From Thermofilum adornatum (GTDB lineage Archaea > Thermoproteota > Thermoprotei > Thermofilales > Thermofilaceae), in NCBI RefSeq assembly GCF_000446015.1, contig NC_022093.1, positions 1,410,001 through 1,442,000 on the forward strand: a stretch of DNA of 32,000 bases. The letters are read 5' to 3'. Under the pieces are notes generated by a model, which saw only the letters and a program-made list of their open reading frames with translations, did not search any database and was not told the DNA's origin. The position numbers were made by a program, and so were the translations under genes. Shown piece by piece: positions 988 to 26,150 of this stretch; position 1 is the first letter of the stretch, and every line of letters starts with the position of its first letter.

Positions 988-1815
988 ATGATGGAGCTAA
1001 GCGAGCTCAAAACAAAGATACTAGCCCTGCTCAAAACAGACGAAGAATTCCGCTACGCAGTAGCAGGCATGATTGGCTACGACGAGATACTAAAAAGACT
1101 CCAGAAACACGACGAGAAGTTTGAAGAAATAGTCTCTATACTTAATAGGCACGAGGAGATACTTGCAAGACACGAAGAGAAATTCAAAGAAATACTGGCA
1201 CAGCTCAAAGAAATCCGGGAATCCCAAAGCAGGCTAGAAAACCGCGTTAACTCTTTAGACAACCGTGTAGACTCTCTAGAAAAAGGCGTAAACTCCTTAG
1301 ATAAACGTGTGGATTCTCTAGAGAAACGGATAGACTCTTTGGAGAAAAGTGTAAACTCCTTAGAGAAAAAAGTCGACTCTTTAGATAAACGTGTAGGCTC
1401 CTTAGAGGAACGCGTCGATTCATTGGCAAGCGCGATGATAGCAGGCTTCGCCGAGCTAAGCAAGTTCGCAGGCATAACCTTTGAAGAATTCGTAAGAAAA
1501 TTCCTAACAGCAAGCCTCCAAAAGTCAGGCCAGATACCCCAGGGATTAGAGCTCACAAGAAAAGTCATAGACAGCGAAGAAATAGACATCTTCCTAGAAG
1601 ACCCCCTCATAGTTGGCGAAGTAACAGCACACGCAGATACACCCCAGGAAGCCGACAAGCTCCTCAAAAAAGCAGAACTAGCAAAAACAAGGTACGCAAA
1701 GGAGCCCAAAAAAATACTAGTAATCCTCACAGCCAAAAGAGACGTAGCCCAAGAAATACAGAGAAAAGCAAAAGAGAAAAACATAGAACTAATAATAGGA
1801 AGAATAATAGACTAG
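988..1815 (+). CDS. Coiled-coil protein with nine perfect heptads and a C-terminal PD-(D/E)xK-like domain. Paralog of 12079-12729.
   Basis: 275-aa ORF. The N-terminus LLKTDEEFRYAVAGMIGYDEILKRLQKHDEKF aligns with LLDEDREFRLMVAGKLGYGDVLRRLERHDRKF of the minus-strand paralog. Heptads read NRVNSLD/NRVDSLE/KGVNSLD and so on. The C-terminus reads EIDIFLED..LIVGEVTAH. Confidence 0.7.
   Translation: MMELSELKTKILALLKTDEEFRYAVAGMIGYDEILKRLQKHDEKFEEIVSILNRHEEILARHEEKFKEILAQLKEIRESQSRLENRVNSLDNRVDSLEKGVNSLDKRVDSLEKRIDSLEKSVNSLEKKVDSLDKRVGSLEERVDSLASAMIAGFAELSKFAGITFEEFVRKFLTASLQKSGQIPQGLELTRKVIDSEEIDIFLEDPLIVGEVTAHADTPQEADKLLKKAELAKTRYAKEPKKILVILTAKRDVAQEIQRKAKEKNIELIIGRIID
1240..1428 (+). repeat. Tandem array of 9 x 21 bp encoding the heptads x-R-V-[DN]-S-L-[ED].
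   Basis: Units read directly from the sequence: aaccgcgttaactctttagac, aaccgtgtagactctctagaa, aaaggcgtaaactccttagat, aaacgtgtggattctctagag, aaacggatagactctttggag, aaaagtgtaaactccttagag, aaaaaagtcgactctttagat, aaacgtgtaggctccttagag, gaacgcgtcgattcattggca. Confidence 0.9.
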
Positions 1816-5420: not shown

Positions 5421-5822
5421 ATGCCGTCCTCTACCTCTGCGCCTGTGCCTCCAACGCTTTCTCAGATCCAAATCACGCCTAGCCTCGTTTCCGCCGCCTA
5501 CAAGCGTTCGCTGAGGTTCGGAGCCTTCTGGAGGCTCAGGCCGGAGGAGAGGGCAATCCTCCTTTTGGCTAGGAGGCTTAAAGCTATTAAAAGCCCAGCC
5601 CTACGCGAGGCAATACTCAGGATCCTCGAGAAAGTCTGGCCCTCCAAGGCAACAATGATAAAGGCCTATGAGGAGGGCCTAAAACTATTAGCCAAAAAGA
5701 TCCAGCTGGCGCTCGCTATTGGAGCTGTACAAGTAGCTGAAGCCCTTAGGAGGGCGACCCATGGCATAGTCCTGGCGCTAGGTTACTCCTATCAAAACAC
5801 ACCCCTATTCTACAGAGGTTAA
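5421..5822 (+). CDS. Conserved hypothetical protein of 133 aa, paralog A.
   Basis: It is about 75% identical to the 17602-18003 product. Both are 133 aa, both end in NTPLFYRG, and both begin with an S/P-rich APVPPT segment. I do not recognise the family. Confidence 0.7.
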   Translation: MPSSTSAPVPPTLSQIQITPSLVSAAYKRSLRFGAFWRLRPEERAILLLARRLKAIKSPALREAILRILEKVWPSKATMIKAYEEGLKLLAKKIQLALAIGAVQVAEALRRATHGIVLALGYSYQNTPLFYRG

Positions 5823-5835
5823 GCATGGGGGTAAA

Positions 5836-5928
5836 GAGATAAAGTTCACTGCACATGCCGAAGAAAAGCTCAAACGATTAAAGAACCTAGGAGTTACAAA
5901 GGAGAAAATACTAAAAGTCCTTAGCAAT
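5836..5928 (+). pseudogene. Possible decayed fragment of a small DUF4258-like toxin gene.
   Basis: It translates to EIKFTAHAEEKLKRLKNLGVTKEKILKVLSN, resembling the N-terminus of small 'xxFTxHAxxRLxxRgIt' proteins. There is no in-frame start and the reading frame appears to break after about 31 codons. Confidence 0.25.
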
Positions 5929-6113
5929 CGGGGTACTCAAAGATATTCTCGAGGAAATCATCAAAGCCCCAAAAAGAGAAATTGTAGAAATAACTTAGAA
6001 CGAGACCATCACATCTGAAGAACCATAACGCCCTTTGGATTCCCAATTTCTACGCGCTGTCTTCATCAAGATCGACACCAGTAGAATCAGCTTTGGCACG
6101 TCCAAACGCAGAA

Positions 6114-6123
6114 TTCTTAAAAA
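6114..6123 (+). promoter_or_regulatory. TATA-like box for the ATPase/TOPRIM pair.
   Basis: ttcttaaaaa is centred about 30 nt upstream of the GTG start at 6148. Confidence 0.35.
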
Positions 6124-6147
6124 CCAGCCAAACAAACTAAACACAAA

Positions 6148-7266
6148 GTGTCCAAATTGATAGAGTCAATCACAATCAAAAACCTAAGAGGAATCAAGCA
6201 ATGCACAGTAAACAACCTAACAGACATAAATATCTTTATAGGTAAAAACGGCGCAGGCAAATCCACAATACTAGAAGCAATCTACCTCGCCTCGTCCTGG
6301 GCAGAGCCAGAAGACCAAATAAGAGACATGCCAAAACACGAATATGTCATATCAAGGAGAGGTGGCAGAGGAAAATGGACAACTTACAAACATACACTCT
6401 GGTTCAACAAAAAAACCGATGAAGAGATCGAGATAAACTTCAACTTCAAATCCCAAAACAAACCAAACGAGTTGATATTTAAGCTTCCATACATGTATAA
6501 TCCTTCAAAAGTTGACTCTCCTGTATTAATTGAAGTTTCACGGCAGAGAATCCCTGAAATTGCTGAATACCACCACGCCCGAAAGCTATATCTCTCTAGC
6601 ACCGGCGATGCATGGAACCCTAAAACAAAAACTAGCTACAAAACCAGCCTCAAGGAAAAAGTTCTTTCATTTGCCGCGGAAGAGATAACGTACCTTGAAA
6701 ACGCAGTTCTACTCGATAACAGGTTCACGGTGAGCCAGCTCGAGCAAAAGGTGTGGGGAAAGATATTCGACAAGAGGCTTGACAAAGAAATACTAGAATT
6801 TATACGAGAGGAATACGAGCCCACAGCTGAAAGTATCCTCTATAAGCCAAGTGGTGAAGGCTTTGTACTCGCGTTCGCCCTGCCACAAACAACAGTAGAA
6901 ATAGACTCTCTGGGAGACGGCGCAAGAATGGCGATACTATACGCGTCCCCCCTACTCCTAGCAAGCGACACAGCCGTCCTAATAGAAGACCCCGAGGCAC
7001 ACCAGCACCCCGGAGGCCTAGCTACATTCACGAGGTTCGCATTCAAAACGGCGAAAAAGCAACGCCTACAGCTGTTCATCACGACACATAGTATCGAGCT
7101 CTTAAACATCGCAAAAGAAATCTCAAAAGAGCTGGGCCTAGGCCTGAGAATCTATTACATGGAGAGAGGCAAAGACGGCTACGTAGACGTACGAGCCATA
7201 GAGGAGCCGGACCTTGAAACCCTCCAGAAAATAGGACTAGACCCAAGAATGCTCCACATACTATAA
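6148..7266 (+). CDS. ABC/SMC-type ATPase (AAA_15/AAA_21-like), similar to the ATPase of OLD/PARIS-type systems.
   Basis: 372 aa with a GTG start. Motifs are Walker A GKNGAGKST, signature-like SLGDGARMA, Walker B/D-loop AVLIEDPEAHQHP and H-loop FITTHS. Confidence 0.8.
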   Translation: MSKLIESITIKNLRGIKQCTVNNLTDINIFIGKNGAGKSTILEAIYLASSWAEPEDQIRDMPKHEYVISRRGGRGKWTTYKHTLWFNKKTDEEIEINFNFKSQNKPNELIFKLPYMYNPSKVDSPVLIEVSRQRIPEIAEYHHARKLYLSSTGDAWNPKTKTSYKTSLKEKVLSFAAEEITYLENAVLLDNRFTVSQLEQKVWGKIFDKRLDKEILEFIREEYEPTAESILYKPSGEGFVLAFALPQTTVEIDSLGDGARMAILYASPLLLASDTAVLIEDPEAHQHPGGLATFTRFAFKTAKKQRLQLFITTHSIELLNIAKEISKELGLGLRIYYMERGKDGYVDVRAIEEPDLETLQKIGLDPRMLHIL

Positions 7267-7269
7267 GCT

Positions 7270-7950
7270 ATGCATATACTCCAGCTAAAGCCCCACCAGG
7301 AATCCTTCTACAAAGTGATACATGACAAGATTAAAGGCCTAGACGCAATCGTCCTATGCGAGGGCGCAAGCGACACAGAAGTAGCAAAAAAGATCCTCCG
7401 AAAAATAGAGAAAAAACTACCGAAAACCGACAAGCAGCCAGTTATCGCCTTCACAGACGCGGAGGGAAAAGAAAACATCCCACTCCTAGCCAGTGCCCTG
7501 CTCTTGCTCTCAAAACTCTCGAGAAAACTCAAGGCAATCGTTGTAATAATTGACGCGGACGAGGACACAGCTGAAAAAAGAACAAGAAGCCTAGTCGACA
7601 GCATACTCTCGCGCAAAGGAGACCTCCAGCTCCAGCTATCAGGCACCAAAAGAGACAACACGTCTAGCCAAGTCTTCATGTCCAACATACATGTAAACGG
7701 GAGAAAAATAAGACTCATAATCGCCGTAAACGGCGACCCAGGACTACGCTTAACCAAGCACACTCTTGAAGACCACTGCATTAACCTCATGGAACTATCC
7801 GTCCCAAAAGGAGCAACAAACGCCAAACAAATAGTCAACGACATAGCACTGTGTCTAGACAAAATAGACAAAACAGATCCACAAACAATATGCAGATCTT
7901 TTACACACATCTGCCGCGCACTAGAACTACTATACACAGAAACCACATAA
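7270..7950 (+). CDS. TOPRIM/DUF4435-like protein, the putative nuclease partner of the upstream ATPase.
   Basis: 226 aa, starting 3 nt after the ATPase stop. DAIVLCEGASDTEVAKKIL is a strand + E-G-x-x-D TOPRIM-type glutamate motif. AIVVIIDADED is a strand + DxD motif. Confidence 0.55.
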   Translation: MHILQLKPHQESFYKVIHDKIKGLDAIVLCEGASDTEVAKKILRKIEKKLPKTDKQPVIAFTDAEGKENIPLLASALLLLSKLSRKLKAIVVIIDADEDTAEKRTRSLVDSILSRKGDLQLQLSGTKRDNTSSQVFMSNIHVNGRKIRLIIAVNGDPGLRLTKHTLEDHCINLMELSVPKGATNAKQIVNDIALCLDKIDKTDPQTICRSFTHICRALELLYTETT

Positions 7951-8044
7951 ACAACCCAGCCAAAACAAAACAATCAAAGAGCCCTGACGCGTCCCAGCAA
8001 GCAAACACATAGCGAAAGGCCTAAGAAAGGCCATCTCAAGACAT

Positions 8045-8077: not shown

Positions 8078-9094
8078 ATGCGAAGAGTCAAGCTCCGACT
8101 CGCTGGTCTACTCGTCGAGTTCACAGACAGAGAAAAAGCGCTAGCCCAAGTCCAAGAGTGGGCTGAAAGAGGCACAATCCAGCCTATAGTCATTTTTGGC
8201 CCCGAGGGATGCGGCAAAACAGCGCTCCTACGCCAGGCCTCCCACGTACTTAAAGATGCCGGCTACACAGTCTTCCACCTCTACCCACTTGACCGAATAT
8301 TCGAGGCAGACATCGAGGAGCCAGACATAAGGAAAGCCTTCCTAGACCTAGCCCAGAGAGCTCTCTCAGAAGACTCCCTTGGTAGGGTAGCCTGGGCAGT
8401 GTTCGACTTTATACGTGAAGCCCTCAAGAGAAAAAAGAGAAAGATCGCTGTCCTGGCGGACGACGTCTTCCAGGTCATTGGGGTTCAAAACGCCGCGGCA
8501 TACGTCAAGGGGCTACTAAACATGATAGAGCACCCACTCTATGACTACGAAAACATCGTAGCAATTGTGGCGACAAGCGAAGGCGTTTCCAGGAGAGAGA
8601 TAGCCAAGCATCTCTGGGCAAATCTAATGCCTATCTGGAACATGCCTAAAAACGGCTTCCAAGAAATCTACGAGAAACTACCCCACCCCAAGCCAGACTA
8701 CGAGAAAGCATGGAGCCTGACAGGCGGCAACCCCAGGATACTCTCAATCCTCTACGAGAAAAAATGGGACTCCAACACAACTGTAGGCGAGCTCGCCTCA
8801 AAAAAGCGGCTAACAGCCTTTATACTCTCGCTAAACCCGCAAGAGCGGGAATGGCTAGCCGAGGCAACAGAGGACCCAGACAAACTCTTCACAAGAGAAA
8901 AGCTACCACTCCTCGACAAACTTGTTGACCTCAACCTCATCGTAGACACCCTGGCATCTAGAGACCCACAACTCTGGGTCGACCAGCCCCCACCAGAGAA
9001 AGACCCACAGCTAGGCATAGGCAGACACATTGCCTGGCAGACGCCCCTACACAGGGAAGCAGTCAAAAAAGCACTAGAAGAATTTGCACGGTGA
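8078..9094 (+). CDS. Archaeal ATPase-family (Arch_ATPase-like) P-loop NTPase.
   Basis: 338 aa. Walker A is FGPEGCGKTALL and Walker B-like is IAVLADDVFQ. The C-terminal 40 aa are duplicated as a remnant at 12992-13111. Confidence 0.7.
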   Translation: MRRVKLRLAGLLVEFTDREKALAQVQEWAERGTIQPIVIFGPEGCGKTALLRQASHVLKDAGYTVFHLYPLDRIFEADIEEPDIRKAFLDLAQRALSEDSLGRVAWAVFDFIREALKRKKRKIAVLADDVFQVIGVQNAAAYVKGLLNMIEHPLYDYENIVAIVATSEGVSRREIAKHLWANLMPIWNMPKNGFQEIYEKLPHPKPDYEKAWSLTGGNPRILSILYEKKWDSNTTVGELASKKRLTAFILSLNPQEREWLAEATEDPDKLFTREKLPLLDKLVDLNLIVDTLASRDPQLWVDQPPPEKDPQLGIGRHIAWQTPLHREAVKKALEEFAR

Positions 9095-10088: not shown

Positions 10089-10961
10089 CTAGGGGCTTAG
10101 TGGCCATTCCTGGAGTTTTCTCATTTTTGGCTCGACGAAGACTATCTTGAAGACTAGGGCCCCGATTCTTAGCTTGGCGGCGTAGTCGAGGAGCTCTTTT
10201 CTGCCGGACACTGTGTATTCTTTTTCCATTATTTCGGCTATGTCCTCGAGCTCCCTTATGTCGTCCATGGTGAATGTGTCTGGGTCCTTGTTTAGTAGCT
10301 CTCTGAGCCTGTTCTCTACCTCTTTAGTGTAGTACTTCGACCTTGAGCCGGGGATCATTCCCCTGAGAGCGACTAGAAGCGTTAACGCCTCAGTCCTGCT
10401 TACTACGCCTTTTTCCTCCAGGACCTTCAATAGGAGCTCGTTGAAGCCGAAGATTCCCTTCTCGAGCTTGTCCAGCCTGGTACTTACGCCATCAATTTTA
10501 CTGTCGACTTCACCAAGCTTGGCTTGCAGGCTCTTTGTTGTGGTCTCGAGAATCCCCAGTCTAGCGTATATATCCTTTACATCCTCCTCGATACCTGCCA
10601 GCCTGCTTTCCACGTTCCTTAACCTGGCGTCCATATTTTTCACCGTTGTCTCAACTCCTGTAAGCTTGTTTTCCACGCTCCCTAATCTAGTATTTATCTC
10701 CCTTACAGTATTCTCAACATCTGTAAGCCTCTTCTCCATGTTTTCCAACCTAGCTTCGTGGGCTTCCAGCCTTGTCTCCACGCCTTTAAGCCTGGAATCC
10801 ATGCTCTTCACAGTTGTCTCGAGGCCCGCCAGCCTAGTATCATGGGCATCCAGCCTCGCTTCTACCTCTTTGAACCTAGCGTCAATTTTTCCAAACTGTT
10901 TTGCAAGCCAGTATCCTAGGCTGGCTGACGAAGAAGCTATCGAGAGTAGGATAACAGCCAT
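10089..10961 (-). CDS. N-terminally membrane-anchored coiled-coil protein with about 20 consecutive heptads.
   Basis: The ORF is listed as 10089-10979 (GTG). The ATG at 10961 gives MAVILLSIASSSASLGYWLAKQF, a signal-anchor, and lies about 30-35 nt from the TATA-like ataatttaa (minus strand). Heptads read ARLDAHD/TRLAGLE/TTVKSMD/SRLKGVE and so on. Confidence 0.7.
   Translation of the reverse strand: MAVILLSIASSSASLGYWLAKQFGKIDARFKEVEARLDAHDTRLAGLETTVKSMDSRLKGVETRLEAHEARLENMEKRLTDVENTVREINTRLGSVENKLTGVETTVKNMDARLRNVESRLAGIEEDVKDIYARLGILETTTKSLQAKLGEVDSKIDGVSTRLDKLEKGIFGFNELLLKVLEEKGVVSRTEALTLLVALRGMIPGSRSKYYTKEVENRLRELLNKDPDTFTMDDIRELEDIAEIMEKEYTVSGRKELLDYAAKLRIGALVFKIVFVEPKMRKLQEWPLSP
10461..10880 (-). 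repeat. Degenerate array of about 20 x 21 bp encoding heptads x-[RTK]-[LV]-x-x-[LVMI]-[EDN].
   Basis: It is read from the translation, residues about 28-167 of the protein, with no stutter or skip in register. Confidence 0.75.
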
Positions 10962-11258
10962 GTTGATTACATCGTCCACGCCACGCCCCCTTAAATTATG
11001 GCTCCAAGGCTTATAAGGATTTCACACAGGAGGCCCGCAAAGCTGTAGGCAAATTTTGGCCATACCCTAGCAAAAGTATCGTAAATGAGACGACCCGCAA
11101 TCTTAACTAGGAAAGGTCCTTGCCGAAAACAACGAATCGCGTTAAGGGAAGGGGCCAATATCTTTAAATTGGAAGGCCCCTGTCTACTTTCTACCAAAAA
11201 TCTATAAACAAATATACTGAAAGCTGAAGAATCAAGCATTGTCGGTAGCCTTTAATTC

Positions 11259-12991: not shown

Positions 12992-13111
12992 CTCTGGGTC
13001 GACGAGCCACCACCCGAAAGGAACCTAGACCTCGGCATCGGCAAGCACATAGCCCAGCAAACAACAATACACAGAGAAGCGGTCAAAAAGGCGCTAGAGA
13101 ATGCTGAGTAA
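12992..13111 (+). pseudogene. 3' remnant (about 39 codons plus stop) of an archaeal-ATPase paralog.
   Basis: It translates to LWVDEPPPERNLDLGIGKHIAQQTTIHREAVKKALENAE*, which aligns with the C-terminus LWVDQPPPEKDPQLGIGRHIAWQTPLHREAVKKALEEFAR* of 8078-9094. Similarity stops abruptly upstream of about 12990. Confidence 0.65.
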
Positions 13112-13908: not shown

Positions 13909-14979
13909 ATGAAGGGCGTCGTTCTCCACGGGGGCCTAGGCACACGTCTCCGACCCCTAACGCACACAGGGCCCAAACAGCTTCTCCGTATTGCTGGAAA
14001 GCCTGTCTCACAGTGGGTCCTAGAAGACCTACGGGAAGCAGGAGTACGGGACGTCGCAATCATACTTGGAAACCTAGCTCCCGAGAGGGTCGTAGAGTAC
14101 TATGGGGACGGCTCCTGGCTAGGCTTGAACCTCACCTACATCTACCAGGGATACCCCTACGGCCTTGCACACGCAGTATACCTTGCAAGGGACTTCGTGG
14201 GTGACGAGCCTTTCGTCGTCTACCTCGGGGACAACGTGATACTCGAGGGCATAACACACTTCGCCAAAAAGTTCGAGGAAACCGATGCAGAGGCAATGGT
14301 CCTCCTGACAGAGGTAGAGAACCCCCAGCGCTTCGGCGTAGCCAAGTTCCAGGACGGGAGGCTTGTAGGCTTCATCGAGAAGCCAAAGATACCGCCAAGC
14401 ACCCTAGCACTCGTCGGCATATACTTCTTTAGGTCCCCAAAGGTCTTCGGGGTCATCGAGTCCCTAAGGCCGAGCTGGAGGGGCGAGCTAGAGATAACAG
14501 ACGCGCTCCAGGGGCTCATCGATAGGGGACTCAAGGTCGAGTACGGCGTGATCAGGGGCTGGTGGAAAGACACGGGGACTCCACAAGACATATTGGAGGC
14601 CAACAGGCTTCTCCTAGACGCGAAGTACAGGGAAAAAGTGGTCAAAGGCCAGGTTCAGGCTTCAAGCGTAGAGGGCAGGGTCTACATAGAGGAGGGCGCG
14701 GCCATTAGGAACAGCACGGTAAGGGGACCCGCATTCATAGGCTCGGGCACAGTCATCGAGGACTCCTACATTGGTCCCTACACGAGCATAGGCAGAAACT
14801 GCAAGTTCACACGGGTAGAGGCAGAGAACAGCGTATTCATGGACGGGGTCCAGCTAGAAGACATACCAGAAAGGATCACAGACAGCATTATAGGCGCAGA
14901 GGCAATAATCAGAAGCAATTCTTCAAAGCCCAAAGGCCTAAAACTAATAGTCGGAGAAAAATCAGTGATCGAGATATGA
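13909..14979 (+). CDS. rmlA: Glucose-1-phosphate thymidylyltransferase, long archaeal form with a C-terminal left-handed beta-helix domain.
   Basis: It has the GGLGTRLRPLT nucleotidyltransferase motif, hexapeptide-repeat-like C-terminus (VEGRVYIEEGAAIRNSTVRGPAFIGSGTVIEDSYIG), and operon context with rmlB/D/C. Confidence 0.8.
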   Translation: MKGVVLHGGLGTRLRPLTHTGPKQLLRIAGKPVSQWVLEDLREAGVRDVAIILGNLAPERVVEYYGDGSWLGLNLTYIYQGYPYGLAHAVYLARDFVGDEPFVVYLGDNVILEGITHFAKKFEETDAEAMVLLTEVENPQRFGVAKFQDGRLVGFIEKPKIPPSTLALVGIYFFRSPKVFGVIESLRPSWRGELEITDALQGLIDRGLKVEYGVIRGWWKDTGTPQDILEANRLLLDAKYREKVVKGQVQASSVEGRVYIEEGAAIRNSTVRGPAFIGSGTVIEDSYIGPYTSIGRNCKFTRVEAENSVFMDGVQLEDIPERITDSIIGAEAIIRSNSSKPKGLKLIVGEKSVIEI

Positions 14980-15977
14980 GGCTACTCGTTACCGGCGGGG
15001 CAGGCTTCATGGGCTCAAACTTTGTACACTACATCTATGCCTCGCGCCCAGACGCAGAGATCCTCGTATACGACAAGTTCACCTACGCCGGCAGAATAGA
15101 GAACCTAAAAGAGCTGGACACCTCGAGGGTCAAGATAGTTAAGGGAGACATCCTAGACCAAGAAAAATTCACTGAGACCCTTAAAGCTTTCCAGCCAGAC
15201 TACGTTGTACACTTTGCCGCCGAAACCCACGTAGACAGGAGCATAAAGGACCCTTCCATATTCATAGACGTAAACGTCAAGGGCGTATACATTATACTCG
15301 AGGCTCTACGCAGACACGACGGCCCCAAGCTCATACACATATCCACAGACGAGGTATACGGAGACATATCAGGCGAACCAGTAACAGAGGAAGCCCCCTT
15401 CAAGCCCAGTAGCCCATACAGCGCCAGCAAGGCGTCCGGAGACCTCCTCTGCCAAGCATACTGGAGAACATACAGCCTACCCGTAAGGATAGTCCGGCCC
15501 TCCAACAACTATGGGCCCAGACAGTTCCCAGAAAAACTAATACCCAAAACAATCCTACGCGCACTGAACGGTTTGCCGATACCAGTCTATGGCGACGGCT
15601 CCCAGGAGAGGGACTGGCTCTACGTCGAAGACTTCTCCAGGGGCCTGGAAACAATAATACTCAGAGGCAGAGACGGCGAGGCATACAACCTCCCAGGACT
15701 AAACCCCAAAACAAACATCCAAGTCATACAAGACATACTCACGCTCCTCGGCAAGCCCCACAGTCTCATAACATTCGTCCCAGACAGGCCCGGACACGAC
15801 AAGAGATACGCGATGAGGGGAGACAAGGTACTCAGCCTAGGCTGGAAGCCCCAGACACCCTGGCTAGACGGGCTCAGAAAAACAATCGAATGGTACAAGG
15901 CAAACGAGTGGTGGTGGAGGCCCCTCCTAGGAGACGAGTTCTTCTCAAAAGACACTCCCTGGGGTGGGACAAGATGA
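14976..15977 (+). CDS. rmlB: dTDP-glucose 4,6-dehydratase.
   Basis: Rossmann motif VTGGAGFMGSNF and SDR catalytic motif YSASKASGD are present. The product is 333 aa. The start overlaps the rmlA stop (ATGA). Confidence 0.9.
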   Translation: MRLLVTGGAGFMGSNFVHYIYASRPDAEILVYDKFTYAGRIENLKELDTSRVKIVKGDILDQEKFTETLKAFQPDYVVHFAAETHVDRSIKDPSIFIDVNVKGVYIILEALRRHDGPKLIHISTDEVYGDISGEPVTEEAPFKPSSPYSASKASGDLLCQAYWRTYSLPVRIVRPSNNYGPRQFPEKLIPKTILRALNGLPIPVYGDGSQERDWLYVEDFSRGLETIILRGRDGEAYNLPGLNPKTNIQVIQDILTLLGKPHSLITFVPDRPGHDKRYAMRGDKVLSLGWKPQTPWLDGLRKTIEWYKANEWWWRPLLGDEFFSKDTPWGGTR

Positions 15978-16870
15978 GGGTACTCGTTACTGGTGGAAGC
16001 GGGCTACTAGGCTCAGTCCTAGTAGAAATGCTTGCACAGAACGGCCACAGCGTTATTGCCACGTATAATGCCCACGAGCCTAGACAAATACAGGGCGTAA
16101 AATGGGTCAAGATAGACATCTCTAGGGGCTATTTGCTCGAGGACCTCGCATGGAAAGAGAAGCCCCACGCAATAATACACAGCGCCGCCATGACAGACGT
16201 AGACAAGTGCGAGATAGAAAAAGAAAAGGCATGGAAAACAAACGTAGAAGCAACCAGGAGCGCCGTGAGGGCCGCCAGGGCCGTAAACGCCCACATAATA
16301 TACATATCAACAGACTACGTCTTTGACGGAGAAAAGGGAAACTACGGGGAAGAAGACCTCCCAGCCCCAGTCAACTACTACGGACTCACAAAGCTCGTAG
16401 CAGAAGAAATAGTCAGGACAAGCGACGTCCTATACACAATCGTAAGGCCCAGCGCCATATACGGCCTAGGCGGTAGCAAGAAAAGCTTCGCAGAATACGC
16501 CGCAGACAAGCTCACAAGGGGAGAAGAAGTCCCAGCACTCGTAGACCAATACGTATCCCCAACATACAACAGGTACCTAGCTTCTGCGATACTCAAGATA
16601 CTCGACACGCGTCCCCTCGGCACAATCCACGTGGCGGGACAAAGGACAAACAGGTACGAATTCGCCCTAACAATAGCCGACATACTCGGCGCCCCAAAAA
16701 ACCTAGTCAAACCAGCAAAAACCCAGGACATGAAGCACTGGCTGGCCAGGAGGCCAAGAGACTCCAGCCTAGACACCTCAAAGGCAAACAGGCTACTAGG
16801 ATATACACACGAAAATAATAAAGCCCTCCAAGACTTCGTAAAAGAGTACCTCGAAAAGAGGCGTCCCTGA
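15974..16870 (+). CDS. rmlD: dTDP-4-dehydrorhamnose reductase.
   Basis: MRVLVTGGSGLLGS begins at the ATG at 15974, which overlaps the rmlB stop (ATGA). The listed upstream extension from 15890 lies inside rmlB. YGLTKLVAE is the YxxxK motif. Confidence 0.85.
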   Translation: MRVLVTGGSGLLGSVLVEMLAQNGHSVIATYNAHEPRQIQGVKWVKIDISRGYLLEDLAWKEKPHAIIHSAAMTDVDKCEIEKEKAWKTNVEATRSAVRAARAVNAHIIYISTDYVFDGEKGNYGEEDLPAPVNYYGLTKLVAEEIVRTSDVLYTIVRPSAIYGLGGSKKSFAEYAADKLTRGEEVPALVDQYVSPTYNRYLASAILKILDTRPLGTIHVAGQRTNRYEFALTIADILGAPKNLVKPAKTQDMKHWLARRPRDSSLDTSKANRLLGYTHENNKALQDFVKEYLEKRRP

Positions 16871-17400
16871 TGGCACTAAAAAACGTTAGGGAGCTAGCCC
16901 TCCCAGGAGCAAAACTCGCAGAACTAGAACGCTTCGTAGACGAGCGAGGTCTCTTCCACGAGCTAATCCGCGCCGACTGGGATCAGCTGCTAGGCGACGA
17001 CAAGCTCCTACAGGCAAATCTCTCAGTAACATTCCCAGGAATAGTAAGGGCCTGGCACCGCCACCTAAGAGGCCAAGTAGACTACTTCTTCGTAGCCAGG
17101 GGATACGCAAAGATATGCGCATACGACGACACCACACAAGCCCTGCTAGAAGTAGTCCTAAGCGGAGACAAGCCACAAATACTACGCATACCCGGACACT
17201 ACTGGCACGGCTTCAAGGCAATAGGCCAAGAACCAGTCTACCTAATATACTTCGTAAACAAGCTATACGACTACCAAAACCCAGACGAAGAAAGACGCCC
17301 ATGGAACGACCCACAAATAGTCCCCAACACAATCAACGGCAAAAAAGACGACCCACGAACAGGCAAACCATGGGACTGGTTCCACCCACCACACAAATAA
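16870..17400 (+). CDS. rmlC: dTDP-4-dehydrorhamnose 3,5-epimerase (cupin).
   Basis: 176 aa with ERGLFHE, RAWHRH and HYWHGF motifs typical of RmlC. The start overlaps the rmlD stop (TGATG). Confidence 0.85.
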   Translation: MALKNVRELALPGAKLAELERFVDERGLFHELIRADWDQLLGDDKLLQANLSVTFPGIVRAWHRHLRGQVDYFFVARGYAKICAYDDTTQALLEVVLSGDKPQILRIPGHYWHGFKAIGQEPVYLIYFVNKLYDYQNPDEERRPWNDPQIVPNTINGKKDDPRTGKPWDWFHPPHK

Positions 17401-21371: not shown

Positions 21372-22406
21372 ATGTCTCAACCTAATAGCTACTCGACAAA
21401 AAGCTACAATTTCGAGGTGCTTGCAGTGATCGTCAATTACGACTCGAAGCCCTTCCTAGCAATTGAAAGAATGTTGCTCAAGGGGCTCGCCGATCTAGGA
21501 CGCTACACGAAGATCAAGCTTCTCCTCGTCGACAATTACAGCACCGACGGTAGCTTCGAGGAGCTAAAAGAGCATTCAAAGCGCCTCGGCGTCGACACGG
21601 AGGCTGTAAGGCTGAGCAAAAACTATGGGTTCGCAAGAGCTGTCAACATCGCCTGGCACTATGCGTTCAAGCGATGGAAGTTCAAGTACTTCATGCTCCT
21701 AAACAACGACCTCGTAATCGTGCCGAACAACGTCGCAAAGCTACTCAAGTACCTCGAGATAGACAACGTAGCAGGCGTCCAAGGCACGCTAATGCAAGCA
21801 GACAACCCACGCCTCATAGACAACGCGGGCTTCGCCATAGACACATTCGGGCTAACCTACCCCATATGCAGGGGCTACACGATCAAGTGCGCGAAGACAT
21901 GCCACCCAAGCTTCCTCAGCGGGGCCTTCTCCGTATACAGAGCCGACGCGATAGAAAAGCTAGGCCAACCCTTCCACAACGCGGTAGAAGCCTACTTTGA
22001 CGACAAGTACCTCGGCTTGAGGCTATGGAGCACAGGCTACAACCTACTCCACGTTCCCCTTGTAGTCGCCTACCATCTCGGGAGCGCAAGCTACGCCCCC
22101 CAGGTCAAACTTAAAAGTCCACAATGGTTCGAGGGTGTACTACTGGCAGAGCTTGCGCCATCATATGTTACTGATATAAAAGCTAGGTATCTTTTAATAA
22201 TTCTTTGGGGAATGACCTCTGCATTTTTGTCTATTATATTTCTTTCAAATTATGTTAAGAATTTTATATTTGCTTACAGGACTGTAAAAATTTTAAAGAA
22301 GAATAAGAAAGAGTTTATCAAAAACTTTAGTATTTTACCTTCAATAACATTAAGTCTTTTACTACTTATAGCAAGAACCAAAAAAGGCTTAAAACTACAA
22401 ACATAA
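21372..22406 (+). CDS. GT2 glycosyltransferase (rhamnosyltransferase-like) with a C-terminal TM tail.
   Basis: LAVIVNYDSK, LLVDNYSTDGS and MLLNNDLV are present. The start is ATG 21372, or the listed TTG at 21363. The last 80 codons lie in AT-rich sequence. Confidence 0.75.
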   Translation: MSQPNSYSTKSYNFEVLAVIVNYDSKPFLAIERMLLKGLADLGRYTKIKLLLVDNYSTDGSFEELKEHSKRLGVDTEAVRLSKNYGFARAVNIAWHYAFKRWKFKYFMLLNNDLVIVPNNVAKLLKYLEIDNVAGVQGTLMQADNPRLIDNAGFAIDTFGLTYPICRGYTIKCAKTCHPSFLSGAFSVYRADAIEKLGQPFHNAVEAYFDDKYLGLRLWSTGYNLLHVPLVVAYHLGSASYAPQVKLKSPQWFEGVLLAELAPSYVTDIKARYLLIILWGMTSAFLSIIFLSNYVKNFIFAYRTVKILKKNKKEFIKNFSILPSITLSLLLLIARTKKGLKLQT

Positions 22407-22407
22407 C

Positions 22408-22677
22408 ATGACGTCGTTGTTAATGTTCCTAAAAATGGGGTGCACGCGTGGCGCGATTGTAGAAAAGTTGCTAAAGTTATTTTTGAATGTTTTTGTTACA
22501 GGTTTTCTTATTGTTGTTTTACTTCTGCTAAGTGTTTCTATTAATAATGTATATTTGAGAAAATATGAGATTTCTAATGAATTGGCCAGATACGCCTATT
22601 ATGCTTTTACTGTTTTATTGCTTGCTTTGCTGATATATCTTTTTTTAAATGAAAAACATTTTCCAGGGTGTTCATAA
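22408..22677 (+). CDS. Small two-TM membrane protein of 89 aa.
   Basis: The ORF starts 2 nt after the previous stop and has two long hydrophobic segments. It lies in an AT-rich region, so a chance ORF is less likely but not excluded. Confidence 0.35.
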   Translation: MTSLLMFLKMGCTRGAIVEKLLKLFLNVFVTGFLIVVLLLLSVSINNVYLRKYEISNELARYAYYAFTVLLLALLIYLFLNEKHFPGCS

Positions 22678-22678
22678 T

Positions 22679-23773
22679 ATGAAAAGTGGGATAAGTATAA
22701 TTATACCCAATCTCAATGGTGAAAAAGTTTTACCTTTTTGTTTGAGAAGTTTAATTAATCAAACACTTTCAAAAGGTAATTATGAAATAATTGTAATTGA
22801 TAATAATTCTACCGATAAAAGCACACAGATATGTGAAACATATTCTAAATTGTATAAATCTCCTAGAATTAGGTGTATAAAATTTTCACGAAACTTAGGT
22901 TATGGCAATGCGATTAACATTGGCGCCAAATATGCTCAATATAAATACATCTTGGCTACTAACAATGATATAATTTTTCATCCCTTTTACCTGGAAGTAT
23001 TACTAGATACTTTAGAGTATGTAAGAAGTAGAATGAAAAACGTTGTAGCCGCAGTTGGTTTACATTTCTATTATCCTGAGGTAACTTGTATCAATTCAGC
23101 AGGAGGACTATTATCCATTGTGGGTGGTCATTATAGATATTATGGGCGTTGTCTTGGGCAATCAGATTTCAGAAATTTCATGAAACAAGCTGTGAATAAG
23201 AAAAAAAAGAAGATTTTTTCTTTAACTGGTTTTGGAACTGGTGCAGCACTTCTTATTGATAGAAGTATATTCATGAAAATTGGAGGATTTTATAAATTGT
23301 ATTTTGCAGGCGTTGAAGAGTTTGATTTAGGATTATTATTAAATCTTTTAGGTTTTAGAATTATTTTTGTTCCAACAGCAGTGCTTTTTCATCGTGAAAG
23401 TTTTACCTTTAAGAGGAAAGGGCTTAATGATACCAATAAAATAAAGGCCTATTTGCCTGGCAATTATATTTATGTCTCCACTTTAATTCAAGGGGTTGAT
23501 CGTATCTTTGCATATTTATTACTTTTTTCTTTCTCTATCTTTATTTTCGCATTCTCTTTAGTAAAAAAAGATAAAAATCTTTCTAGAAGCATAATTGAAG
23601 TATACAGATTTATAACTTCAGATTATTTCAATAAGAATTTAGTTGCACGAAGAGCACAATTCAGGATAACTTTACATCAATATTTTGAAACGAAAAAAAT
23701 TCTAAAAAGTTTAAAAATGTGGAAATCACCCTTAGCCATTATAGTGGATACCTTTAGGTCCTTCTTGTCATGA
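22679..23773 (+). CDS. GT2 glycosyltransferase.
   Basis: ISIIIPNLNGEK, VIDNNSTDKS and ATNNDIIF are present. The ATG at 22679 is preferred over the listed 22649, which overlaps the previous ORF. Confidence 0.75.
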   Translation: MKSGISIIIPNLNGEKVLPFCLRSLINQTLSKGNYEIIVIDNNSTDKSTQICETYSKLYKSPRIRCIKFSRNLGYGNAINIGAKYAQYKYILATNNDIIFHPFYLEVLLDTLEYVRSRMKNVVAAVGLHFYYPEVTCINSAGGLLSIVGGHYRYYGRCLGQSDFRNFMKQAVNKKKKKIFSLTGFGTGAALLIDRSIFMKIGGFYKLYFAGVEEFDLGLLLNLLGFRIIFVPTAVLFHRESFTFKRKGLNDTNKIKAYLPGNYIYVSTLIQGVDRIFAYLLLFSFSIFIFAFSLVKKDKNLSRSIIEVYRFITSDYFNKNLVARRAQFRITLHQYFETKKILKSLKMWKSPLAIIVDTFRSFLS

Positions 23774-23810
23774 TATTAAGAAAAATCTATAAGCGCGCAT
23801 CTCATAACAA

Positions 23811-24875
23811 ATGTTTCAAATTAAAAGTAGCAATATGGTAAACGTAAATAACAATTATAATTATATTAGCATTGTCATTGTTACATGGAATGGCAAACAC
23901 TATATTGGAACTCTCTTTAATTCCTTATCGAGAATACTTAATAGACATCCAAACATTGAAATAATAATAGTAGATAACGGAAGTACAGATGGAACTCAAG
24001 ACATAATTAAAACTATTATAGAAAGATTAAATTTAAATAGTCGAGTTACCGTTAAATGTCTTAATAAAAATCTCGGTTTTATGGGAGGTAATAATGTAGG
24101 CATTATGTTTGCCAGAGGCAAACTAATATTTATGTTAAATCAAGATACATATTTGCATGATGAAGCACTAGAAAATGTTTTCCAAATTTTTAATAGCGAC
24201 CCTAAAATTGGAGCTACGCAATGTCTCCTACTCCAGTATCGGCATCCCCACATTTTAGACTCATGTGGGGATGAGTTCAGTAGCTTAGGAACAGGTATAA
24301 TCGGTTGTTTTGGAGAAAGATTTACTAAAGTTTTAGCAGAAATCAATGAAAGAAGAGAGATAGTCTTAGCAAGAGGTGCAGCACTCATCATCAGACGAGA
24401 GGTGCTCGAACTATCAAAGAAAATTTTTGGAACATACTTACCCACCTATCTTGTAGCACCCTACTATGAGGATTGGTTTCTGTCAATATTCACAAAAGTA
24501 TTGGGCTATAAACTCTTACTTATACCCAGTTGTATAGTATATCACGATTCCTTAAAACAAATACATCGTGATCCGTATACTTTATATAATGCTGTTAATA
24601 TCTTTGTACAGTTTCGTGCACCAATTTTCATGATTCTTGGAACAATTGGAACGATTGCATTTTCATCCGTTTTCATTTCTAAACAACCGTTAAAATTGCT
24701 TATTTGTTTTAGAGCTCTACTAAGGAAACTCAGGAAAAATATTCAAATGAGGTATTATATAGATATACTAGCTAAACAAAGAGGAATAGAGCTTAAAAAT
24801 TTATGGAAGACGAAAAGAAAAACTACAGATGCCCTTAGATGGTACTTCACTTTTCTGCAATTAACTCGAAAATAA
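23811..24875 (+). CDS. GT2 glycosyltransferase.
   Basis: ISIVIVTWNGKHY, IIVDNGSTDGT and MLNQDTYL are present. The start is uncertain, with an alternative ATG at 23835. Confidence 0.75.
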   Translation: MFQIKSSNMVNVNNNYNYISIVIVTWNGKHYIGTLFNSLSRILNRHPNIEIIIVDNGSTDGTQDIIKTIIERLNLNSRVTVKCLNKNLGFMGGNNVGIMFARGKLIFMLNQDTYLHDEALENVFQIFNSDPKIGATQCLLLQYRHPHILDSCGDEFSSLGTGIIGCFGERFTKVLAEINERREIVLARGAALIIRREVLELSKKIFGTYLPTYLVAPYYEDWFLSIFTKVLGYKLLLIPSCIVYHDSLKQIHRDPYTLYNAVNIFVQFRAPIFMILGTIGTIAFSSVFISKQPLKLLICFRALLRKLRKNIQMRYYIDILAKQRGIELKNLWKTKRKTTDALRWYFTFLQLTRK

Positions 24876-24914
24876 AGCGTAAAAAATTAATAAATTGTGA
24901 TAGATAGAAACAAA

Positions 24915-26150
24915 ATGAGTAAAGATACAAAACTTGTAATAGTATGTAACTACACCTTTCCTCTAGCAGGAGCACCTTGGAGAAGAATTGAATATTTTTC
25001 AAACTTTCTCTCTAGATACAAAATGGATGTAACTGTCATAGGAGCAATTGAATTAGGCAGAGAAACTTCTAAAATGATTAAAGCTATTAGGGGAATAAAA
25101 TACGACAAGTTCAGAGTATTTAATTTGCAATGGCGTATTGGAATATTTGCTCTAATAATTGAAATCTTTAATTTCATAGGAACTTTCCCCTTATTAATAA
25201 TTTTACCCGTGTTAAAACCTAAGATAGTTTATATTTCTATACCTTATATTGAAACATTGCCCACCGCATATTTAGTAGCTAGGTTAATAGATGCAAAAAT
25301 AGTTATAGATGTACGTGATCCATTGGAATACTGGCCAAGCTGGACAAAAGGTTTTACTCGAAAATTTTTTGGTTTTCTTACTTTGCTTGATTACATACTT
25401 ATGCGTAAATCTGACCTTGTTCTAGCGGTTACTCCTGGCTTAATTAGGCTCCTCGCACAACAAGGCATAGTTGCACATCTTGTAATGAATGGCGCTGATA
25501 CGCAAATTTTTCGGCCTTATCCTCGTAGCGAAGTTAGAAGAAAACTTGGCCTAAACGATGATGCCATAGTGCTTGTCTTCAGCGGTCGCTTAGGCGGCTA
25601 CTACGACGCTATCCCCCTCCTTCATGGAATAGCTAGGTTGTCGAATGCGCTAAAGAAGAAAGTGGTATTGTTGCTCGTCGGAGGTTTTGGAGACGCATCA
25701 TATGCGAGTAAGTTTGTGCGAATAGCGAAGGAGCTGCATTTATCCAGCAACATAAAGGTTCTGCAACCGATACTAGATGCGCGTACGCTGGCGGAGGTCC
25801 TTTCAGCCGCGAACGCGGGGGTCGTCACGCATGTGACCTCGGAGCTGTACGACCCGGCAATACCAGTGAAGTTTTATGAGTACTTAGCTTGCGGCCTCCC
25901 CGTTATAGCTTTGAGTAGGCGCGGCTCGGAGCTCTGGAGGCTGATCGAGAAGTGGGGGGTGGGTTTTGCGTGCGAGCAGCACGACCTTGATTGCATTACG
26001 AGAGCTTTGGAAAAAATCTTTGACGAAAGCACTATGGAAAGCATCAGGGCTAATGTCCTTCGCGTAAGACTCCTTATCGATAGGCGCCGAGCTGCGGAGA
26101 AGCTGTACAGCTTGCTCCGCGAACTGCTGGAGCCCAAGAGGGATGCTTAA
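24915..26150 (+). CDS. GT-B fold (GT4-like) glycosyltransferase.
   Basis: The C-terminal domain has VLVFSGRLGG...FYEYLACGLPVIA, an E-x7-E-type region. The ATG at 24915 is preferred to the listed GTG at 24897. Confidence 0.7.
   Translation: MSKDTKLVIVCNYTFPLAGAPWRRIEYFSNFLSRYKMDVTVIGAIELGRETSKMIKAIRGIKYDKFRVFNLQWRIGIFALIIEIFNFIGTFPLLIILPVLKPKIVYISIPYIETLPTAYLVARLIDAKIVIDVRDPLEYWPSWTKGFTRKFFGFLTLLDYILMRKSDLVLAVTPGLIRLLAQQGIVAHLVMNGADTQIFRPYPRSEVRRKLGLNDDAIVLVFSGRLGGYYDAIPLLHGIARLSNALKKKVVLLLVGGFGDASYASKFVRIAKELHLSSNIKVLQPILDARTLAEVLSAANAGVVTHVTSELYDPAIPVKFYEYLACGLPVIALSRRGSELWRLIEKWGVGFACEQHDLDCITRALEKIFDESTMESIRANVLRVRLLIDRRRAAEKLYSLLRELLEPKRDA

Follow-up and report, generated by a model that had tools for sequence, protein, structure and literature searches.

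A predicted split OLD-like ATPase-Toprim gene pair of the DUF3226 family in Thermofilum adornatum

Gene pairs in which an ATP-binding cassette (ABC) ATPase is encoded separately from a Toprim protein are an established class, represented by PARIS, AbiL, HEC-01 and Mad3/Mad4. In PARIS, a hexamer of AriA holds three AriB, and a viral trigger frees AriB, which then dimerises and cleaves tRNA-Lys (PMC11464382); the system has been proposed as 'Class 4 OLD' (PMC10568477). The domains on which the PARIS paper based its survey of AAA15/21 defence proteins do not include DUF3226 (PMC11464382), and DUF4276/Mad4 and RloB have recently been recognised as members of the Toprim superfamily (PMC12065111). 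The pair described here, gene 1 and gene 2, lies in a 32,000-nucleotide (nt) stretch of the genome of Thermofilum adornatum (contig NC_022093.1, positions 1,410,001 to 1,442,000, forward strand), which is called the window below and to whose first letter all positions refer. A first-pass annotation, made from the letters of the sequence, had taken the two genes for OLD-nuclease domain content divided between two polypeptides, as in PARIS, and for a candidate undescribed archaeal antiviral system. The division was borne out, gene 1 encoding an OLD/AriA-type ATPase and gene 2 a Toprim-type protein, here assigned to DUF3226. The best explanation is that the two genes are co-transcribed and make up a module complete in itself; we put at roughly 0.65 the probability that this module is a Toprim nuclease of the OLD kind, gated by its separately encoded ATPase, with a part in defence or abortive infection.

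Both open reading frames (ORFs) were found with the coordinates, lengths and spacing first given for them (Table 1); three nt separate the TAA stop of gene 1 from the ATG of gene 2, and both genes are on the forward strand. A TTG at 6157, three codons inside gene 1, agrees with the 'MIES...' N-termini of its homologues, so the true start of gene 1 could lie three codons downstream of the GTG. The A/T box TTCTTAAAAA ahead of gene 1 suggests a putative archaeal promoter and a leaderless or short-leader bicistronic transcript. When the window is compared by blastn with the related locus L015, 78% DNA identity extends exactly over the promoter region and the two genes, with the flanks unaligned at that level, and this confinement marks out a discrete cassette. 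An antisense ORF of 221 amino acids (aa) at 7308-7973 is without support and most likely a mirror artefact. The window genes share 99-100% identity with copies found on other contigs (Thermofilum adornatum proteins), and the copies in complete T. adornatum genomes are at least 90% identical to the window proteins. Outside their motifs the two proteins had at first been matched to no known family; this did not hold, as gene 2 exceeds the gathering score of a Pfam family and both proteins already carry public names, 'DUF3226 domain-containing protein' (gene 2) at NCBI and, for gene 1, 'AAA family ATPase' and, at UniProt, 'Endonuclease GajA/Old nuclease/RecF-like AAA domain-containing protein'.

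Gene 1 matches Pfam AAA_15 (5.8e-26) and AAA_21 (1.7e-15), which upholds its assignment as an ABC-type ATPase. Its top PADLOC models are AbiLi (7.9e-33), PDC-M38A (2.7e-29) and AriA (3.6e-27), followed by lesser matches to NsnB, GajA, HEC-01A (2.3e-16), Old and PtuA; in the NCBIfam scan no equivalog cut-off was reached. All of the motifs first picked out by eye (GKNGAGKST, SLGDGARMA, AVLIEDPEAHQHP and ITTHS in gene 1, C-E-G-A-S-D and D-A-D-E-D in gene 2) are present, far beyond chance, and they are invariant or nearly so in 55-58 homologues. The conservation counts and the AlphaFold2 (AF2) model for gene 1 are based on an alignment of 55 homologous sequences. Within the AVLIEDPEAHQHP motif, all 55 have D or E at position 281, and P282, H285, H287 and P288 are found in at least 93%; the equivalent of this Walker B motif in the fused OLD-like protein P0244 is LLIEEIENHQHP. 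Q308 is also conserved. The AF2 model (pLDDT, the predicted score in the local distance difference test, 92.8; predicted TM-score, pTM, 0.93) is compact, without a long coiled coil, and its best Foldseek matches among PDB folds, at about 1e-13, are PtuA (Septu, retron Eco7/Ec78), the Thermus scotoductus (Ts) OLD protein, retron Eco8 and Rad50. Gene 1 encodes a complete ABC ATPase of the OLD/AriA/PtuA type, with the nucleotide-binding and hydrolysis motifs all intact.

The protein encoded by gene 2 scores 35.1 bits (E 1.6e-8) against Pfam DUF3226 (PF11536), above the gathering score of 27; the alignment covers residues 26-116 only, corresponding to model positions 2-85 of 208, and the conserved C-terminal half (NG...KHxIEDH...FxHI) lies outside it. 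In PADLOC it matches PDC-M38B (1.7e-5, N-terminal half) and then, at about 1e-3, GajA, Old and HEC-01B. Among 58 family members, 53 match DUF3226 and 32 match OLD-like_TOPRIM at E<=0.01 (best 1.1e-7), while the PADLOC models are matched by 35 (PDC-M38B, best 8e-11), 26 (mad4), 13 (Old), 10 (GajA) and 9 (HEC-01B). Gene 2 had been called 'TOPRIM/DUF4435-type'. The Toprim half of that label stands, on the fold, the Glu and the DxD; as for DUF4435 (PF14491) or AriB identity, no match was obtained at E<=10 for gene 2, nor for any of the 58 members at E<=0.01, and the family is instead DUF3226.

Conservation in gene 2 was counted over a 58-sequence alignment reaching down to about 20% identity, and the Glu and DxD residues singled out in the first-pass annotation proved to be conserved in it (Table 1). 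In the C-terminal KHTLEDH motif, H164 is found in 48/58, E167 in 52/58 (with D in 5 more) and D168 in 54/58, and all 58 have H or Y at position 169; G66 (58/58), R104 (50/58) and G155 (55/58) are also conserved. The AF2 model (pLDDT 94.7, pTM 0.91) follows the Toprim order, beta1(26-30)-alpha-beta2(58-63)-alpha-beta3(89-95)-alpha-beta, and continues into a beta-hairpin region and a helical C-terminus. Its top Foldseek matches in the PDB are the catalytic C-terminal regions of OLD proteins (6NJX, 6NK8 and 6NJV) and the retron Eco2 Toprim effector, at probabilities of 0.92-0.98. When the DUF3226 family was compared by hhalign with P0244, a 545-aa fused archaeal ATPase-Toprim protein whose ATPase half has the SLGDGAR, NHQHP and LFITTHS of gene 1, the two aligned over 154 columns (94.7% probability, E 6e-8), with the motif pairs LCEGASD/LVEGPED, IIDADE/VIRDLDK and KHTLEDH/SHSFEDY in register. 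The two-metal site of Burkholderia (Bp) OLD consists of E400, E404, D455, D457 and T506/E508, plus K562 (PMC6755086); E31, D35, D95, D97 and E167/D168 of gene 2 occur in the same order, with the same E-to-E+4 spacing. As read from sequence, the arrangement of these conserved residues, along with H164 and H169, corresponds to that of the OLD two-metal nuclease site. Taken together, the profile, fold, hhalign and residue-order evidence argues that gene 2 is a separately encoded Toprim-fold homologue of the whole OLD-like catalytic region, and these ties place the pair with PARIS ('Class 4 OLD') as an OLD-like module divided in two. Searches of PDB sequences with gene 2 and with the family profile gave nothing significant, the best being PH0156/2P62 (E 0.15) and 2I5R, a 'Toprim domain-containing protein' (E 1.4).

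A homologue search with the deep alignment gave only 16 proteins, and the breadth of the DUF3226-type family was gauged instead by running a 13-sequence profile exhaustively with HMMER against 1.84 billion representatives (E<=1e-3), which yielded 130 clusters; 129 of the 130 representatives are stand-alone proteins of no more than 235 aa, nearly all of them 200-235 aa long. In every DUF3226-anchored locus with upstream room, an AAA_15/AAA_21 ATPase of 341-394 aa lies directly upstream; the loci checked, from 66% down to borderline similarity, were L015, L001/2, L004, L007-9, L010, L011, L012 and the P0112 contig. The intergenic distance ranges from -4 to +11 nt across related loci. Starting from the ATPase, 80 metagenome loci were surveyed, and a count was made of the 38 that share 33% identity or more and extend about 300 nt or more downstream: 33 have DUF3226-derived sequence directly downstream and five (L021, L024, L055, L076 and L096) do not. 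The co-occurrence that the first-pass annotation had marked for checking is therefore found from both sides. Both proteins also diverge in step, the ATPase/DUF3226 identities to the window falling together through 77/66, 51/42, 49/40, 38/20 and 32/24%. At one of the five loci, L021, an ABC ATPase 52% identical to gene 1 (623-1684) is followed, with a 4-nt overlap, by a 262-aa protein (1681-2469) that has a PP-loop-like SGGKDS motif, without Pfam or PADLOC match, in place of DUF3226; this may be an effector swap.

The pair is frequently decayed. About 21 of the 33 loci look intact or simply run off the contig. In about 12, including L019, L022, L026, L027, L028, L042, L060, L064 and L066, a truncation or frameshift affects one gene or both. 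The pair is decayed in the same way at L013 and L016, and L096 was flagged along with them as carrying decayed copies of one or both genes. Some of the frameshifts may be assembly errors; the clean truncations (L019 after 26 residues, L022/L026 after about 77) are not. So high a share of damaged copies, about a third of close-relative loci, suggests that the module is costly and often inactivated. Where a member has a named source, this is a thermophilic archaeon; the names are Thermofilum, Desulfurococcaceae, Thermoproteales, Zestosphaera and Ca. Methanodesulfokora. A pattern-based scan of GTDB genomes found only two Desulfurococcaceae metagenome-assembled genomes (MAGs), which is no evidence of absence elsewhere, since complete T. 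adornatum genomes carry the pair. A 38-kb contig of a Zestosphaera sp. (Desulfurococcales) MAG holds copies that are at least 90% identical to the Thermofilum proteins (MEM0038954.1, MEM0038955.1), which reflects either a recent transfer of the cassette between orders or a binning error.

Beyond these relatives lies a wider set of loci (L072, L080, L084, L088, L093 and L095) in which ATPases 23-31% identical to gene 1 are directly followed by genes for 219-254-aa proteins that open with a hydrophobic strand and 'EG' and have a D-x-D further on. The downstream proteins are homologous to the DUF3226 family (hhalign 96%, E 5e-9) and almost invisible to Pfam and PADLOC, and the set looks like a broader, under-catalogued group of split ATPase-Toprim pairs. 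Some of these are apparently bacterial, judging by eye from their Ala/Arg/Gly-rich translations.

For the genomic surroundings, 148 non-redundant genes within 2.7 kb of the pair were pooled from 37 loci. The commonest families are ATPase_2 (7), HEPN (5), AAA_21 (5), MNT-type nucleotidyltransferases (4), PaREP1 (2) and PIN (2); PADLOC matches among them are to AriA/mad3/HEC-01A-like ATPases and to single Cas6, DrmD and BrxH/HmaA-like genes. In the window itself the HEPN-MNT, PaREP1, STAND-like ATPase and toxin-antitoxin (TA) remnants listed by the first-pass annotation were all recovered (Table 1). Its rarity, its patchy and often decayed occurrence and the conflict genes around it speak for the pair as an accessory conflict module and not a housekeeping one.

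The most likely mechanism is one analogous to those of PARIS, OLD and Gabija, in which the ATPase encoded by gene 1 would bind the gene 2 nuclease and restrain it. Some signal from an incoming virus or plasmid would alter the nucleotide or oligomeric state of the ATPase, and the nuclease, thus freed or activated, would cut nucleic acid, either host tRNA, as in PARIS, or DNA, as in OLD and Gabija, stopping growth and so aborting the infection (mechanistic precedents: PMC11464382 for PARIS; PMC6755086 and PMC10568477 for OLD/Gabija). It is from homology and context that we infer the antiviral role claimed at the outset, as well as the physical complex, the trigger and the nuclease substrate.

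Several observations weigh against this reading. Gene 2 scores only 19.4 bits against OLD-like_TOPRIM (PF20469), under the gathering score of 23.2; its position 97, the second Asp of the DxD, is N in 10/58 homologues and D or E in 48/58; and its fold matches are distant (Foldseek E about 5e-3, TM 0.36-0.48), so there is no close solved structure. Name searches of the literature found no paper on DUF3226, and there is no experimental work on any protein of this family. Viral and plasmid records (IMG/VR patterns, INPHARED, PLSDB, BFVD) gave no relatives. Ordinary metabolic genes are mixed among the pooled neighbours, and within the window no canonical restriction-modification (RM) or CRISPR (clustered regularly interspaced short palindromic repeats) system adjoins the pair. 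HEC-01, an ABC ATPase with a Toprim protein and the closest tested analogue, gave no phage protection in E. coli (bioRxiv 10.1101/2024.01.29.577857).

Another idea is that the pair is a selfish addiction module of the TA kind, an ATPase-restrained nuclease toxin kept by post-segregational killing, or by drift via variable regions, with no specific antiviral benefit. The tight operon does sit among TA-type genes (HepT-MNT, PIN and the TA fragments at 5826-5995), its distribution is patchy and its decay frequent, Pfam annotates AAA_21 as 'putative AbiEii toxin, Type IV TA system', and the copy at least 90% identical in a different order (Zestosphaera) hints at mobility. Yet the characterised systems of ABC ATPase and Toprim (OLD, Gabija, PARIS and retron Eco8) are all in phage defence (PMC11464382, PMC10568477), the plasmid and virus records searched yielded no homologue, and TA and abortive-infection defence are not mutually exclusive; a purely selfish element is, we think, quite unlikely. 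A housekeeping module for DNA repair or recombination, formally resembling RecF (ABC ATPase) with RecR (Toprim) or Rad50, might be suspected from the N-terminus of gene 1, which matches the NCBIfam models recF (3.3e-12) and Rad50 (2.2e-10) and PDB Rad50 (about 5e-6), from the Rad50 structures among its fold matches, and from the Toprim domain of RecR (PMC12065111, reference 80: Aravind et al. 1998). These matches are confined to some 45 residues around the P-loop, however, and fall far short of the cut-offs (recF 46.2 against 172 bits, Rad50 39 against 700 bits); no long coiled coil is present in gene 1, the family, besides being extremely rare, is often pseudogenised, and the pair lies in variable regions whose neighbours differ between genomes. 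On scores and distribution a RecF/Rad50 repair module was rejected, and a housekeeping role of any such kind, which the first-pass annotation had also set apart from its proposal, is very improbable. Since about a third of related loci are truncated or frameshifted, the window pair might itself be a decaying remnant that no longer functions; this can hardly be credited for copies that are full length with every catalytic motif intact, that are so closely matched on other contigs and in complete genomes of the species, and whose AF2 models are both highly confident.

A further possibility is that the functional unit has more than two genes, with the adjacent PF01637 ATPase_2 gene, a STAND/Orc-like AAA+ protein with a winged-helix tail, supplying a third component, for example a sensor, in the Thermofilum/Desulfurococcales clade. 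Homologues of it (44-64% identity) adjoin the pair in about 11-12 of some 29 clade loci whose ABC ATPase is at least 44% identical, their divergence resembles that of the ABC ATPases, and ATPase_2 heads the pooled neighbours (7/148). At least three arrangements occur (downstream on the same strand, upstream on the same strand, and upstream divergent), at L015 (12174-13184 and 9026-9718), L020 (7785-8795), L066 (2167-3171), L073 (2447-4455), L019 (3900-4895), L071 (1596-2597) and L013 (8865-9869, minus strand). This very variability of orientation and distance counts against a fixed component, as does the absence of ATPase_2 beside intact pairs of lower similarity whose flanks are long (L030-L036, L054 and L012) and at L001/L004. 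The 78% DNA block shared with L015 ends before the gene, whose protein identity is 53% compared with 77/66% for the pair; the 127-nt spacer 5' of it holds a TATA-like CATAAAAG, and it is probably a transcription unit with its own promoter. The window also contains another DUF234 fragment as well as, at 12992-13098, a remnant of ATPase_2. Because these genomes carry PF01637 genes in many copies, a degree of adjacency to the pair is to be expected. The protein could be a clade-specific third component or a mere co-resident of the same variable regions, and we regard the former as unlikely. Still bolder, and improbable on present evidence, is the proposal that DUF3226 pairs form a distinct split OLD-like immunity class, found mainly in hyperthermophilic archaea so far, which in the Thermofilum/Desulfurococcales clade joins with PF01637 in a three-part sensor-switch-nuclease.

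Table 1. Coordinates of the gene pair, its predicted motifs and other features of the window
Feature	Position	Strand	Remarks
DUF234 fragment	56		
Coiled-coil protein	988-1815	+	DUF7310-type heptad repeats
PaREP1, two copies	3704 and 11294		
HepT-MNT fusion, 268 aa	4379-5185	+	HepT-like HEPN RNase, residues 26-114; MNT/Pol-beta nucleotidyltransferase, residues 149-234
133-aa protein	5421-5822	+	5' of the pair; no Pfam match
Two-gene cassette block	6099-7964	+	Promoter region, gene 1 and gene 2; blastn, window against related locus L015
TATA-like A/T box TTCTTAAAAA	6115-6124	+	About 25-33 nt 5' of the GTG; read by eye from the sequence
Gene 1	6148-7266	+	372 aa, GTG start; OLD/AriA-type ABC ATPase (AAA_15/AAA_21)
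Walker A/P-loop GKNGAGKST (residues 32-40)	6241-6267	+	G32, N34, G37, K38 and S39 invariant in 55/55
ABC signature-like DSLGDGAR (residues 253-260)	6904-6927	+	G256 and G258 invariant; D253, L255, D257, A259 and R260 at least 90%
Walker B with OLD-family 'E(D/E)PExHQHP', AVLIEDPEAHQHP (residues 276-288)	6973-7011	+	E280 and E283 invariant in 55
H-loop TTHS (residues 312-315)	7081-7092	+	S315 invariant; T313 54/55; H314 48/55
Gene 2	7270-7950	+	226 aa, ATG start; DUF3226-family Toprim-fold protein, predicted metal-dependent nuclease
Toprim motif 1, strand and LCEGASD (residues 29-35)	7354-7374	+	E31 and G32 58/58; position 35 D/E 58/58; C30 53/58
Toprim motif 2, strand and IIDADE (residues 93-98; IIDADED 93-99)	7546-7563	+	DxD equivalent; D95 55/58 (N in 3)
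C-terminal motif KHTLEDH (residues 163-169)	7756-7776	+	Candidate second-metal or general acid-base site
ATPase_2 (PF01637) gene	8078-9094	+	Pfam 7.9e-63
DUF3782/PD-(D/E)XK protein			Among the genes around the pair
Coiled-coil paralogue	10089-10979	-	DUF7310-type heptad repeats
PIN protein	19342		

Among the other features of the window, the 133-aa protein upstream of the pair has a homologue, 74% identical, beside the decayed pair of L019 (2905-3282) and so appears to travel in the same neighbourhood. Between its gene and gene 1, at 5826-5995 on the forward strand, are short broken frames (e.g. ...KIKFTAHAEEKLKRLKNLGVTKEKILKVL...) that look like TA gene debris. The HepT-MNT fusion carries toxin and antitoxin on one polypeptide, as opposed to the usual two genes, and the coiled-coil gene at 988-1815 contains six tandem repeats in a 21-nt register at 1234-1422. 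The window was also searched for the hallmarks of mobile elements; it has no tRNA genes and no inverted repeats, and its only direct repeats are paralogue fragments of PaREP1 and ATPase_2 (3719-4018/11309-11608, PaREP1, 71%; 8972-9078/12992-13098, ATPase_2 3' end, 76%; and 9805-9835/13322-13352). With PaREP1 copies on either side and a second ATPase_2 remnant, the region is paralogue-rich and rearranged. Downstream are dTDP-rhamnose and glycosyltransferase genes, with RmlABCD-like genes at 13909-17400 in a surface-polysaccharide cluster. From 22000 to 25000 the guanine-plus-cytosine (GC) content is 30-33%, compared with 39-60% in the rest of the window, and the three family-2 glycosyltransferase genes found there were probably acquired horizontally. 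At 26154-30089 (forward strand), between glycosyltransferase and methyltransferase genes, lies, in a stretch with a GC content of 58-60%, a 1311-aa ORF that has no Pfam match at E<=1e-3.

The pair would give DUF3226 a concrete functional proposal, in which a two-metal Toprim nuclease is under the control of its own dedicated OLD-type ATPase, and would extend the design principle of OLD and PARIS to the Crenarchaeota. To our knowledge, few archaeal antiviral systems beyond CRISPR and RM have been tested, and in the literature searched no tested ABC-ATPase/Toprim system from hyperthermophiles was found. The proteins are compact and thermostable (372 and 226 aa, with very confident models), which suits them to structural work on how an ATPase gates a nuclease. 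The wider set of split pairs is largely unannotated, so defence catalogues may under-call this class. The finding is incremental, in that a specialist would expect such pairs; what most invites attention is the PF01637 ATPase gene that recurs beside the pair, which, if the three-part system were true, would provide a first functional foothold for the unexplained large PF01637/DUF234 paralogue expansions in Crenarchaeota.

Of the described systems, PARIS shares with the Thermofilum pair the arrangement of two co-directional genes, adjacent and here three nt apart, that split an OLD-type AAA_15/AAA_21 ATPase from a stand-alone Toprim protein with Glu and DxD, and gene 1 matches the PADLOC AriA model. 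The differences are that gene 2 and its family have no DUF4435/AriB match, the fused AriAB model being touched by only 2/58 members; that the window proteins, of 372 and 226 aa, are smaller than the PARIS proteins of about 53-55 kDa and 35 kDa (PMC11464382); and that the named members are from archaeal thermophiles, with none found on viruses or satellites, whereas PARIS is often borne by phages or satellites. PH0156/2P62, the top though non-significant PDB match of the DUF3226 profile, is also reported as the best structural match of a lactococcal AriB (PMC11381338), which links the two Toprim branches. With the OLD family (Class 1, P2/Ts OLD; Class 2, GajA; Class 3, retron Eco8) the pair has in common the ATPase lineage, including E(D/E)PExH.HP and a Foldseek match to Ts OLD (6P74) at 7e-13, and, in gene 2, the Toprim layout of E, an acidic residue at E+4, DxD and a further acidic pair downstream, as well as the OLD C-terminal regions as best PDB folds and the alignment to fused archaeal P0244. 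It differs in having ATPase and Toprim on two polypeptides, with a TAA stop between them, in the TM-scores of gene 2 to OLD (0.36-0.43) and its sub-threshold OLD-like_TOPRIM score, and in the absence of a UvrD-like helicase or retron partner near the window pair.

The nearest catalogued two-gene entry is PDC-M38 of PADLOC, and with it on record, and the architecture published for PARIS, AbiL, HEC-01 and MADS3/4, the word 'undescribed' in the first-pass annotation was too strong. Residues 1-326 of gene 1 align with positions 1-323 of 367 in PDC-M38A (PDLC04608); the nuclease side is matched weakly, PDC-M38B (PDLC04624) aligning at a marginal 1.7e-5 over residues 19-113 of gene 2, its N-terminal Toprim half (model 7-92 of 220). 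These are comparisons of model scores, set apart from PADLOC's own thresholds and system rules. The PADLOC PDC set comprises 145 untested candidates, drawn from RefSeq genes by guilt-by-embedding in BREX, DISARM or type I RM systems (bioRxiv 10.1101/2024.01.29.577857), whereas the window pair is not embedded in any of these; a search of the literature for the name PDC-M38 found no paper. HEC-01A is matched by gene 1 in two short stretches and HEC-01B by gene 2 at 1.5e-3. AbiL resembles the pair through AbiLi, the best PADLOC model of gene 1, and differs in that gene 2 has no AbiLii match at E<=10. The eight-gene MADS system likewise has an ABC ATPase with a small Toprim-type partner, gene 1 matching NCBIfam MAD3 at 8e-8 and nearly half of the gene 2 family matching mad4, but MAD3 reaches only 31.8 bits against a 420-bit cut-off, gene 2 itself has no mad4 match at E<=0.01, and no methyltransferase adjoins the pair, nor is any other gene of MADS present. 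Set beside these systems, the pair follows a familiar design in a rare archaeal variant that is as yet uncharacterised, and is no new kind of system, being distinguished by its different Toprim family, its smaller proteins and its hyperthermophilic archaeal hosts.

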